From IMG/VR virus record IMGVR_UViG_2671180753_000008: a DNA stretch of 6,703 nucleotides. The stretch is one strand, 5' to 3'. The DNA comes from a virus. Lineage: Duplodnaviria > Heunggongvirae > Uroviricota > Caudoviricetes. Below the pieces are notes generated by a model. That model did not search any database. It worked only from the letters and a program-made list of their open reading frames with translations, and had not been told where the DNA came from. Position 1 is the stretch's first letter, and every line of letters begins with the position of its first letter. Positions 4,171 through 5,712 of this stretch are shown in pieces. The translations under genes and the position numbers were made by a program.

Positions 4171-4196
4171 AAAAAAAAGGCCCGCAAAAGCGAGCC
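4171..4196 (-). terminator. Rho-independent terminator closing the tRNA cluster
   Basis: Minus strand reads GGCTCGC-TTTT-GCGGGCC (7-bp stem with one G-U pair) followed by eight U, starting 15 nt after the CCA end of tRNA-Arg(UCU). Confidence 0.65.
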
Positions 4197-4210
4197 AGGG
4201 AAAATAAGTG

Positions 4211-4287
4211 TGGCGCGTTGTACTGGATTCGAACCAGTGACCGATTGCTTAGAAGGCAATTGCTCTGTCCGGCTGAGCTAACAACGC
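4211..4287 (-). tRNA. tRNA-Arg, anticodon UCU (reads AGA), CCA encoded
   Basis: Hand-folded from the reverse complement: acceptor GCGTTGT/ACAACGC, D stem GCTC/GAGC, anticodon stem ATTGC/GCAAT with loop CTTCTAA, T stem ACTGG/CCAGT with loop TTCGAAT, discriminator G, CCA. Resembles E. coli argU in architecture. Confidence 0.8.
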
Positions 4288-4300
4288 ATGATGCAGATAA

Positions 4301-4377
4301 TGGACCGCCATCGGGGACTTGAACCCCGCGCAGCCAGCTTCGAAGGCTGGCGCTCTTTCCTGATGAGCTAATGGCGG
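4301..4377 (-). tRNA. tRNA-Arg, anticodon UCG (reads CGA), CCA encoded
   Basis: Hand-folded: acceptor CCGCCAT/ATGGCGG (C1-G72), D stem GCTC/GAGC, anticodon stem CCAGC/GCTGG with loop CTTCGAA, T stem CGGGG/CCCCG with loop TTCAAGT, CCA. Confidence 0.75.
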
Positions 4378-4384
4378 TATGTGA

Positions 4385-4438
4385 TGGTGGCCCTTGCTGG
4401 ATTTGAACCAGCGACCTGGCGATTATGAGTCGCTCGCT
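4385..4438 (-). other. 3' portion of the tRNA-Ile gene duplicated on the left side of the N gap (probable assembly artifact)
   Basis: 4363-4438 is identical to 4516-4591 (76 bp) and is cut off by the run of N. Confidence 0.7.
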
Positions 4439-4515
4439 NNNNNNNNNNNNNNNNNNNNNNNNNNNNNNNNNNNNNNNNNNNNNNNNNNNNNNNNNNNNNN
4501 NNNNNNNNNNNNNNN
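4439..4515. other. Assembly gap (77 N)
   Basis: Run of n characters flanked by identical 76-bp sequence on both sides. Confidence 0.95.
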
Positions 4516-4537
4516 ATGAGCTAATGGCGGTATGTGA

Positions 4538-4613
4538 TGGTGGCCCTTGCTGGATTTGAACCAGCGACCTGGCGATTATGAGTCGCTCGCTCTCACCACT
4601 GAGCTAAAGGGCC
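4538..4613 (-). tRNA. tRNA with anticodon CAU, most likely tRNA-Ile2 (lysidine-type, ileX-like) rather than Met; CCA encoded
   Basis: Hand-folded: GGCCCTT acceptor, D stem GCTC/GAGC, anticodon loop CTCATAA, T stem GCTGG/CCAGC, ACCA end. Overall sequence closely resembles E. coli ileX as I remember it. Confidence 0.75.
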
Positions 4614-4653
4614 GGGAGCCGCATAATAACGACGCGTAATTAATTCTTCAATA

Positions 4654-5712
4654 TCATCCGTTCTGGCTGACTAAATCCTGTACTTCCCGAACCGTCTGCT
4701 CAAAACGTTCAGTCTCCAGCTCAACGCCAATTGCACGACGCCCGAGCGCCAGTGCCGCTTTCACTGTCGAACCCAACCCCATGAAAAAATCTGCAATCAG
4801 GTCACCCGGACGACTGCTAGCGCTGATTATCTGCTGCAGCATTTCTGCCGGTTTTTCGCACGGATGTTTCCCGGGATAGAACTGCACCGGTTTATGCGTC
4901 CACACATCGGTATACGGCACCTGCACCGTCACGCCAAAATACCGCCGCAGATGTTTATATTCACTCAGCAGCTCCGCATACTGCCGGTTCAGTGAGGTAT
5001 ACGTATCCACCAGCTGGTGGTGGAGCTTTTCCAGTTCACCACGCCGATGCTTCTCTTCTGCCACCCGGGCAAACAGCGCCTGTAATTTCAGATAATCGCT
5101 TTCATTCGGCAACTGCCACTGACCGGCACTGAACCAGTGCGACACCATGTTTTTCTTTCCTGTGGCATCTGCAATCTGTTTTGCCGTTATCCCCAGGGCA
5201 GCTCGCGCATCACGAAAGTAAGAAATCAGCGGGGCCATCACATGCTGTTTCAGTGCACTGCCCTTCGCCGCATACCCGGCATCTTTCGGACGATACGGCC
5301 CCTGATAATGTTCCGCGAACAGAATGCGCTCTGTGGCGGGGAAATACGCCCGCAGGCTTTCCTTGTTGCATCCGTTCCAGCGTCCGGACGGCTTCGCCCA
5401 GATAATATGGTTCAGCACACTGAAGCGTTCACGCATCATGATTTCGATATCAGATGCCAGGCGATGACCACAGAACAGGTAAAGACTTCCGGCAGGTTTC
5501 AGCACCCGCCAGAACTGCGCCAGACACTGGTCCAGCCACTTCAGGTAATCATCGTCGCCCTTCCACTGGTTATCCCAGCCCTCAGGCTTCACTTTAAAGT
5601 ACGGCGGGTCCGTGACTATCAGGTCAACAGAATTTTCGGGTAACGACCGGATAAATTCCAGGCAGTCGGCGTTGATTAACTCACAACTGGATATTTTTAC
5701 AGTATTAAGCAT
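4654..5712 (-). CDS. DNA methyltransferase, beta-class amino-methyltransferase (N6-adenine or N4-cytosine); no partner restriction enzyme in the window
   Basis: 352-aa ORF with the DPPY catalytic motif near the N-terminus (DLIVTDPPYF) and an FxGxG SAM-binding motif near the C-terminus (DLIADFFMGLGST). Start context is weak. Stop lies 40 nt upstream of the tRNA-Ile gene. Confidence 0.85.
   Translation of the reverse strand: MLNTVKISSCELINADCLEFIRSLPENSVDLIVTDPPYFKVKPEGWDNQWKGDDDYLKWLDQCLAQFWRVLKPAGSLYLFCGHRLASDIEIMMRERFSVLNHIIWAKPSGRWNGCNKESLRAYFPATERILFAEHYQGPYRPKDAGYAAKGSALKQHVMAPLISYFRDARAALGITAKQIADATGKKNMVSHWFSAGQWQLPNESDYLKLQALFARVAEEKHRRGELEKLHHQLVDTYTSLNRQYAELLSEYKHLRRYFGVTVQVPYTDVWTHKPVQFYPGKHPCEKPAEMLQQIISASSRPGDLIADFFMGLGSTVKAALALGRRAIGVELETERFEQTVREVQDLVSQNG

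Follow-up and report, generated by a model that had tools for sequence, protein, structure and literature searches.

An orphan adenine methylase gene with a conserved structured leader and a tRNA operon in the late region of a probable lambda-like prophage

Why would a phage carry a DNA methyltransferase gene with no restriction enzyme beside it, directly ahead of a cluster of tRNA genes? The question is raised by a stretch of 6,703 nucleotides (nt) from the IMG/VR virus record IMGVR_UViG_2671180753_000008 (Caudoviricetes), all of which was analysed and is referred to here as the window. A preliminary description of positions 4171-5712 had noted a methyltransferase gene, genes for tRNA-Ile(CAU), tRNA-Arg(UCG), and tRNA-Arg(UCU), and a terminator, in an order likened to that of Shiga toxin (Stx) phages. 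It is very probable that this block is the accessory part of the late region of a lambda-like (Qin/Stx-phage-type) prophage, and that it consists of two independent cargo modules downstream of the antiterminator gene Q and the late promoter. The first module would be an orphan methyltransferase gene of the M.EcoGI/M.EcoGII family with its own conserved structured leader. The second would be a tRNA operon, ileZ-argN-argO, that has a putative promoter and a terminator to itself. On the minus strand the order is Q, a pR'-like sequence, a terminator, a 65-amino acid (aa) open reading frame (ORF) with a terminator, the leader, the methylase gene, a pT-like promoter, the three tRNA genes, and a terminator (Table 1).

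The methylase ORF (5712-4654) matches the family PF01555, N6_N4_Mtase (7.9e-42, residues 29-340). The DPPY and FxGxG motifs that had been pointed out are both present, as TDPPYF at residues 34-39 (DPPY at 35-38) and FMGLG at residues 310-314. This is the arrangement of a beta-class enzyme, in which, from the N-terminus, the DPPY catalytic motif IV is followed by a recognition domain and then by the S-adenosylmethionine (AdoMet) motif I, FxGxG. The beta-class methyltransferases M.RsrI, CcrM, and MboIIA of the PDB align to residues 8-141 and 269-345 only. Matches at the two ends of the protein fit the model of M.EcoGII, in which a Rossmann core (residues 1-134 and 260-349) is interrupted by a four-helix recognition domain (PMC11551740).

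The prophages of Escherichia coli O104:H4 C227-11 encode M.EcoGI and M.EcoGII, both of 349 aa and identical at 333 of 349 positions. The cloned enzymes methylate adenine without sequence specificity, are silent in the lysogen, and damage the cell when expressed (Murray et al., 2018, PMC5778455). Phage 1720a-02 encodes a closely similar methyltransferase (PMC5778455), and an EcoSal review agrees with this account of the two enzymes (PMC12707154). The methylase of the window is 96% identical over 349 aa to WP_000935536, a 349-aa methyltransferase of C227-11 that is either M.EcoGI or M.EcoGII. It is 95% identical to the protein annotated as DNA methylase in phage Stx2a_1447. Because of the full-length identity to the C227-11 enzyme, the methylase is placed by its sequence within the characterized M.EcoGI/M.EcoGII family of context-free adenine methylases. 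The claim that it has no adjacent restriction gene was borne out. Among the ORFs examined, its neighbours are the 65-aa ORF and the tRNA genes rather than nucleases, and the PADLOC models match the methyltransferase only. The cognate endonuclease that lies beside the methylase in a Type II restriction-modification system was not found among these neighbours.

One residue sets the window copy apart. Codon 313 (4775-4777) is TTG and encodes leucine, which is a single C-to-T change from TCG. In a pattern search of 90 loci, 81 homologous loci of many genera had codons for FMGSG, with Ser313, and the pattern FMGLG was found in 0 of the 90. Leu313 is therefore present in the window copy only, which departs from the family-invariant FMGSG and retains the generic FxGxG. 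The change could be a sequencing error in the draft.

The three tRNA genes were called by ARAGORN and by the Rfam tRNA model (RF00005, gathering score 29 bits), each with the anticodon that had been reported. The spacing of 40 nt between the methylase stop (4654) and the first tRNA base (4613) was confirmed, as was the terminator after the trio, a hairpin followed by T8 at 4196-4171. The names ileZ, argN, and argO follow the database annotation of phages 933W and Stx2a_1447. The tRNA with the CAU anticodon was labelled Met by ARAGORN. It is identical at 76 of 76 positions to the annotated ileZ of 933W and of Stx2a_1447, and it also equals the tRNA-Ile of C227-11. It is identical to ileX of E. 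coli K-12 at 69 of 76 positions, and metT and metU differ from it all through the stems. It carries the pairs C4-G69 and C5-G68, which are the acceptor pairs recognized by the lysidine synthetase TilS. Despite its label, it is by these sequence features a tRNA-Ile2 of the lysidine type (ileX/ileY/ileZ).

The UCG tRNA has four differences from argN of 933W. The UCU tRNA is identical to argO of Stx2a_1447 and has one difference from that of 933W. In the alignment both Arg tRNAs keep A20 and C35, which are identity elements for arginyl-tRNA synthetase. In all phage copies, argN has an unusual first pair, C1-G72, and a U73 discriminator; the Arg tRNAs of E. coli normally have A73 or G73. The UCG anticodon had been said to be absent from K-12, and this agrees with the seven annotated Arg tRNA genes, which we take to be the complete set: ACG (four genes), CCG, UCU, and CCU. 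In 933W and Stx2a_1447 the terminator past argO is unchanged in stem and loop, and stx2A comes next.

At least three contigs, broken at repeats, were scaffolded into the window, and the order past each join is unreliable. A run of 77 N (4439-4515), overlooked in the preliminary description, lies inside the tRNA cluster. It is bordered by exact 76-nt duplicates (4363-4438 and 4516-4591), each of which comprises the spacer together with the flanking 5' end of argN and 3' part of ileZ. The duplicates are unmerged overlapping contig ends, so the apparent 160-nt spacing between ileZ and argN and the extra partial copy of ileZ are assembly artefacts. When the duplicate is collapsed, the spacer is 7 nt, the same as in C227-11 and ATCC 11775. 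Gaps of this kind in draft assemblies are a possible source of spurious additional tRNA fragments. Single N at 1010 and at 3055 mark more scaffold joins, within copies of the insertion element IS600, and the methylase and tRNA block lies on the contig 3056-6703.

Upstream of the block, a probable lambdoid late operon is indicated by Q (PF03589), a terminator, and a readable pR'-like sequence. The counterpart of Q in C227-11 and ATCC 11775 is a 273-aa antitermination protein. The pR'-like sequence scores under the threshold of the promoter scan, and it is taken to resemble lambda pR'/qut. A transcript of about 65 nt (6252-6179, minus strand) is predicted from pR' to tR', and a match to isrK over 6181-6252 was sub-threshold (16.2 bits, E = 0.53). 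Its presumed equivalents would be 6S RNA in lambda and StxS in Stx phages. Three intrinsic terminators were found from Q to the end of the tRNA genes. The lysis genes are outside the window, which is interrupted by IS600 and scaffold joins; they come downstream in the collinear prophages of ATCC 11775 and C227-11.

The order Q, methylase, ileZ-argN-argO, stx, which had been ascribed to Stx phages, holds for Stx2a_1447 and does not hold for 933W, where only the last ~110 nt of the methylase gene remain. Synteny with Stx phage late regions was upheld by the order and spacing in Stx2a_1447, though the window is without stx. That the methylase groups with phage enzymes was also supported, since the block is matched in a nucleotide search by 291 phage records, mostly of Stx2-converting phages. 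Its nucleotide identity is ~95% to many Stx2a/2d phages and to 1720a-02, and 85-87% to phiP27 and Stx2c phages. The methyltransferase gene together with ileZ was found in 1915 of 5426 complete E. coli genomes, in up to 12 places per genome, with a best full-length identity of 97.5%.

Outside E. coli, the methylase is found in other company. A set of 80 loci was collected with one genome per species (Salmonella, Enterobacter, Klebsiella, Citrobacter, Mixta, Erwinia, Buttiauxella, Providencia, Morganella, Photorhabdus, Xenorhabdus, and others). The homologues in this set are 61-97% identical to the methylase, and tRNA genes lie downstream in only three loci, which are of the Escherichia type. 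In Salmonella and Enterobacter the methyltransferase gene has Q on one side and the holin/lysozyme genes on the other; in Photorhabdus it is flanked by Q and lysozyme. The Q proteins beside it belong to two unrelated families, PF06530 and PF03589. Because the position between Q and lysis genes is kept across genera with two unrelated Q families, the methylase is, by comparison of these loci, an old late-operon passenger of enterobacterial lambdoid phages, behind which the tRNA operon was added in the Escherichia/Shigella lineage. The two are regarded as independent modules because 933W has the tRNA genes without the full methylase gene, and loci outside Escherichia have the methylase gene without tRNA genes. 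Where they stand side by side, two cargo modules have been stacked in a manner specific to the lineage.

Directly 5' of the methylase start is a leader of ~145 nt (5858-5713), which can be aligned across genera whose methylases are only 62-80% identical. In 12 genera, mean pairwise nucleotide identity was highest for the leader (77%), followed by the methylase gene (69%) and the small ORF (61%). The leader has two structured domains. Domain 1 is a basal stem, AUGGGC/GCUCAU, that carries a long hairpin. Domain 2 is a long-range helix of AGGUCA with UGAUCU at -8 to -3 before the AUG, in which GATC is invariant, and it continues with AAGCG/CGCUU and an inner hairpin. In the original alignment 93% of cells pair, compared with 30-42% when the partners are slid, and 94% of cells are paired in a model-based alignment of 53 distinct sequences. 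Compensatory change was seen in 13 pairs, compared with 5.4 +/- 1.5 in shuffles, and was reached in 0 of 500 shuffles; the structure was built from the tested, mutually related sequences, and these pairing statistics are support and not proof. The leader of the window has a minimum free energy of -63.4 kcal/mol (z = -4.3).

A covariance model of the leader gave scores of 86-180 bits in 48 sources; every one of these matches is on the sense strand and stops 9 nt into the methyltransferase ORF. The model had no match in 933W, weak partial matches in Photorhabdus, and none in Xenorhabdus save one weak match. The leader has no match to an Rfam 15 family even at E = 10, where only chance-level matches were obtained (5650-6300). 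It occurs with M.EcoGII-family genes across Enterobacteriaceae, Erwiniaceae, Providencia, and Morganella. A homologue of the 65-aa ORF lies 100-160 nt upstream of the methyltransferase gene in 61 of the 80 loci. In about 12 loci the leader and the methyltransferase gene are present behind other genes. The constant partner of the methylase is therefore the leader and not the 65-aa ORF, and an obligatory Com-like partnership of the ORF with the leader is weakened by the same loci. The 65-aa ORF has weak similarity, under the cut-off, to the winged-helix families TrmB and DprA_WH, and a conserved core of ...GEIAQNT.LS...CQLILTQLVMAGL. Its AlphaFold single-sequence model (pLDDT, the predicted local distance difference test, of 53) was too poor for a fold search.

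Other explanations of the leader were considered. A coding function, either in a 7-codon ORF (MGGWWVL) or in a 60-aa ORF (5705-5887), was rejected; one-base indels between genera break all frames, and the leader is therefore regarded as non-coding. Providencia also alters the peptide yet retains the hairpin. A promoter with an extended -10 (TGTGnAAAT) was rejected as the main explanation, as both arms of the downstream stems covary. The Chi octamer GCTGGTGG is nearly invariant in hairpin 1, and a special Chi site was rejected because Chi is common in phage 1720a-02 and in the window. In the late-gene sense orientation there are 17 in 1720a-02 (47 kb) and 4 in the window. The octamers are dense and skewed to the late-gene sense strand in 1720a-02 (17 vs 4), and a back-to-back palindromic Chi pair lies inside the methylase gene. 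It is tentatively suggested, at somewhat less than an even chance, that the leader is an undescribed cis-regulatory RNA in which the start region would be locked in a helix, so that the toxic enzyme stays untranslated until a late signal. The signal that opens it could be processing, or a protein such as that of the often-adjacent 65-aa ORF, probably a helix-turn-helix protein.

The preliminary description had proposed that the trio supplies decoding for the rare codons AUA, AGA, and CGA. This was corrected for CGA, which occurs at 2.4-4.9 per 1000 codons in the phage genes, where CGG is enriched (12-16). In the phage ORFs of the window and in the whole phage 1720a-02, respectively, the frequencies per 1000 are 21.6 and 6.4 for ATA, 9.6 and 4.5 for AGA, 8.4 and 5.2 for AGG, 2.4 and 4.9 for CGA, and 14.4 and 12.5 for CGG. 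The averages for K-12 are roughly 4-5 for ATA, 2-3 for AGA, 1-2 for AGG, 3.5 for CGA, and 5.5 for CGG. The late genes of 1720a-02 reach 15.9 for CGG. In stx2A of Stx2a_1447, ATA occurs at 46.9 per 1000 (15 of 20 Ile codons) and AGA at 18.8. These counts suggest that the tRNA genes benefit mainly AT-rich cargo genes here, and that the UCG tRNA serves CGG rather than CGA. The note "CGG?" in the 933W record is in line with CGG as the target of the UCG tRNA.

A course of events can be proposed for the block. In the lysogen, transcription from the late promoter would halt at the first terminator, and the toxic methylase would be silent. On induction, RNA polymerase modified by Q would pass all the terminators. 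The methylase would then N6-methylate adenines in most contexts on replicating phage DNA ahead of packaging, and progeny DNA would thereby be protected in the next host from those type I, II, and III restriction systems that m6A blocks. The tRNAs would be made from the late transcript, and perhaps also constitutively from their own promoter. They would supply further decoders of AUA (once lysidine is in place), AGA/AGG, and CGA/CGG, codons that would be rare for the host and frequent in the AT-rich cargo at the locus, stx2A in Stx phages and iraM and its neighbours here. These steps are drawn from lambdoid biology and the M.EcoGII literature; the genes, their order and spacing, the near-identities, and the three terminators are what the window itself presents.

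The position past argO differs from that of the Stx phages. No stx ORF is present in the ORF list of the window, and stxA-stxB do not follow the argO terminator. Right past this terminator the window ceases to be homologous to 933W and Stx2a_1447, both Stx2 phages; homology to 933W resumes in the sequence after stx2B. At the stx position the window has a gene for a small RNA (sRNA) of the prophage STnc100 family. Because the homology resumes past stx2B, stx2AB is regarded as an insertion between the argO terminator and the STnc100 sRNA gene, and the slot is empty here. Copies of the STnc100-family sRNA gene lie on the minus strand at 821-1010, 2210-2399, and 3945-4134 (122-133 bits). Copies 2 and 3 have the same 183-nt flank and an IS600 end in common, and copies 1 and 2 both map to one C227-11 prophage segment. 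Assembly duplication, or an origin in different prophages, may account for some of these copies.

IS600, of the IS3 family, occurs three times in the window (1-74, 1011-2034, and 3056-3769), and all copies are cut by window or contig ends. The copy at 1011-2034 is 100% identical by BLAST to Shigella sonnei plasmid copies, and an identity as IS911 was rejected on the BLAST result. Positions 3056-3355 equal 1321-1620 (300 nt tested, identical), and a 77-nt end of the element is 99% identical. The IS600 load, together with a best full-length identity of just 97.5% to complete E. coli genomes, indicates that the host of the prophage is probably Shigella or a close E. coli relative. The gene for the anti-adaptor IraM, a phrog_2873 ORF, and the start of an esterase gene are also present; these are cargo of a non-Stx prophage and are all very rich in ATA and AGR.

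Table 1. Positions of the features in the window and the evidence for each.
Feature	Position	Strand	Evidence
Antiterminator gene Q, 3' part, cut by the window end	6285-6703	minus	PF03589 Antiterm, 6.5e-32
Putative late promoter pR' with -10-like pause element (TTGATT-16 nt-TGgTAAATT, N6, AACGAT-GGG)	6240-6279	minus	Read from sequence
tR'-like intrinsic terminator, ending a leader transcript of ~65 nt	6179-6204	minus	Terminator scan
65-aa ORF, probably a small helix-turn-helix protein	5863-6060	minus	phrog_331, 1.4e-37
Intrinsic terminator overlapping the stop codon of the 65-aa ORF	5853-5876	minus	Terminator scan
Conserved two-domain structured leader of the methylase mRNA	5704-5858	minus	Alignments, covariance model
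Beta-class N6-adenine DNA methyltransferase by sequence, M.EcoGI/M.EcoGII family, 352 aa, S313L	4654-5712	minus	Pfam, alignment
Sigma-70-like promoter just 5' of ileZ (TTGAAG-17-TATTAT)	4623-4651	minus	Consensus match; homologous to pT annotated in 933W
ileZ, tRNA-Ile2 (CAU)	4538-4613	minus	ARAGORN; Rfam tRNA model, 72.5 bits
argN, tRNA-Arg (UCG)	4301-4377	minus	ARAGORN; Rfam tRNA model, 58.0 bits
argO, tRNA-Arg (UCU)	4211-4287	minus	ARAGORN; Rfam tRNA model, 70.1 bits
Intrinsic terminator past argO (GGCTCGC-TTTT-GCGGGCC, then T8)	4171-4196	minus	Terminator scan
Assembly artefact (77-N gap and two 76-nt copies)	4363-4591		Sequence scan
STnc100-family prophage sRNA gene, at the stx position	3945-4134	minus	RF02076, 123.6 bits (gathering score 47)
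Partial IS600, ending the contig with the methylase-tRNA block	3056-3769	plus	Identity to the copy at 1011-2034
phrog_2873 ORF	2632-2985	minus	phrog match
Anti-adaptor IraM	460-795	plus	NF007393, 4.7e-48
DUF1737 start of a SASA-type esterase, cut by IS600	26-214	minus	DUF1737
Chi octamers (GCTGGTGG)	5827-5834, 5806-5813, 5007-5020, 6142-6149, 2521-2528		Sequence scan

Several points weigh against a working late-region block of this kind. The scaffold is joined at 1010, 3055, and 4439-4515, and sequence past IS600 is untrustworthy. The anti-restriction role of M.EcoGII-type enzymes is inferred in the literature too. ATA, AGA, and CGA are just modestly enriched in the whole phage, and the benefit of the tRNA genes may be limited to a few cargo genes. 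The S313L allele may be weak or dead, for example through impaired AdoMet binding, and the methylase may be impaired by it in a toxin-less prophage that is ridden with IS600. A decaying relic can accordingly be considered, that is, a cryptic prophage disrupted by IS elements and with an inactive methylase allele, in which at most the tRNA genes still matter to the host. The substitution affects a residue that is serine in 81 of 81 matching loci, and seven substitutions are seen in the window methylase alone in a three-way alignment. IS600 is found 400 nt downstream and again in other parts of the window, and the low best identity to any complete E. coli genome (97.5%) points the same way. However, the ORF of 352 codons is intact, DPPY and both glycines of FxGxG are retained, and the leader, the terminators, and the tRNA genes are intact as well; a lone C-to-T difference in a draft assembly is also a possible sequencing error. 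A relic is considered rather unlikely. It bears on the present activity of the block and not on its identity, and it is compatible with the accessory late-region block proposed here.

Two further explanations change the role of one module. The tRNA trio could mainly counter tRNA-targeting toxins or defence nucleases by replacing cleaved host tRNA-Arg or tRNA-Ile, a role that phage tRNAs are able to play in other systems. In favour of this, argO is strongly unlike argU of K-12, argN has no host counterpart and has the unusual C1-G72/U73 end, and the cognate codons are modestly enriched across the whole phage. However, ileZ, at 91% identity to the host ileX, would probably be sensitive wherever ileX is; the extremely high ATA and AGA content of the neighbouring cargo genes suits the classical explanation by codon supply; and no tRNA nuclease is linked to the locus. 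Such a counter-measure is quite improbable as the main role. Still less credible, to the point of being hardly worth entertaining, is a sequence-specific methylase, orphan or part of a restriction-modification system, that protects or regulates through one defined motif. PADLOC does place the enzyme under Type II methyltransferase models, and its NCBIfam and PDB neighbours are sequence-specific. The likeness to those enzymes is restricted to the catalytic core, however, no endonuclease gene is nearby, and 96% identity links the protein to one of the C227-11 pair, for both of which non-specific methylation was demonstrated (PMC5778455).

Placed in the late region as an accessory block, the methylase and tRNA genes are already known. 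The enzyme family is biochemically characterized, and hundreds of phage and prophage records carry the trio in their annotation. One further copy of a block found in about a third of complete E. coli genomes adds little. The block can be regarded as a marker of a lambdoid prophage late region that is able to carry stx, with the slot empty here and hit by IS600. The leader RNA is the sole element of the locus that may be new. EcoGII is widely used in chromatin and RNA footprinting, and we know of no exploration of the natural regulation of this enzyme family. The block is also an entry point to the conserved leader RNA of these commercially and experimentally important enzymes.

The locus can be compared with several known systems. 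In phage Mu, com-mom is a case of translational control of a toxic DNA-modification gene. If the leader is cis-regulatory, its lock would be a functional analogue of com-mom control. By analogy, both have a small upstream ORF and an mRNA structure predicted to sequester the start region. There is no sequence relationship, and unlike Com the 65-aa ORF is not a zinc finger, and it is missing from about 12 loci that retain the leader and the methyltransferase gene. The C227-11 enzymes share with the window enzyme the beta-class motif order of DPPY, central recognition domain, and FxGxG, and the C227-11 prophage has the same order of Q, small ORF, methyltransferase gene, tRNA-Ile, and two tRNA-Arg genes. 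In contrast, the window enzyme is of 352 aa with another C-terminal tail, of the Stx-phage type, and S313L, and its activity is predicted only.

Phage 933W (NC_000924) has an identical ileZ, the same tRNA order, a putative pT, and the same terminator stem and loop. It differs in that only the ~110-nt remnant of the methylase gene immediately precedes the tRNA promoter and that stx2AB lie directly downstream, whereas the window has the full methylase gene and no stx. From the remnant, the 933W arrangement derives by deletion from an ancestor that carried the methylase. In Stx2a_1447, Q, the small ORF, the DNA methylase gene, ileZ, argN, and argO are alike in order and spacing, but stx2A lies 91 nt past argO. 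The Stx2a/2c/2d phages Stx2a_1447, WGPS2, 1720a-02, and phiP27 as a group share the order and spacing from Q to argO at 85-95% nucleotide identity (94.9% for 1720a-02). These phages have stx2AB between the argO terminator and the STnc100-like sequence, where the window has the sRNA gene and then IS600. The best overall structural match is the non-Stx Qin-like prophage of E. coli ATCC 11775 (NZ_CP033092). It has no IS600 insertion and keeps Ser313, and the window has IS600 where the collinearity with it ends. Their collinear stretch, with 95-98% identity, begins at Q and extends 183 nt past the STnc100-like element.

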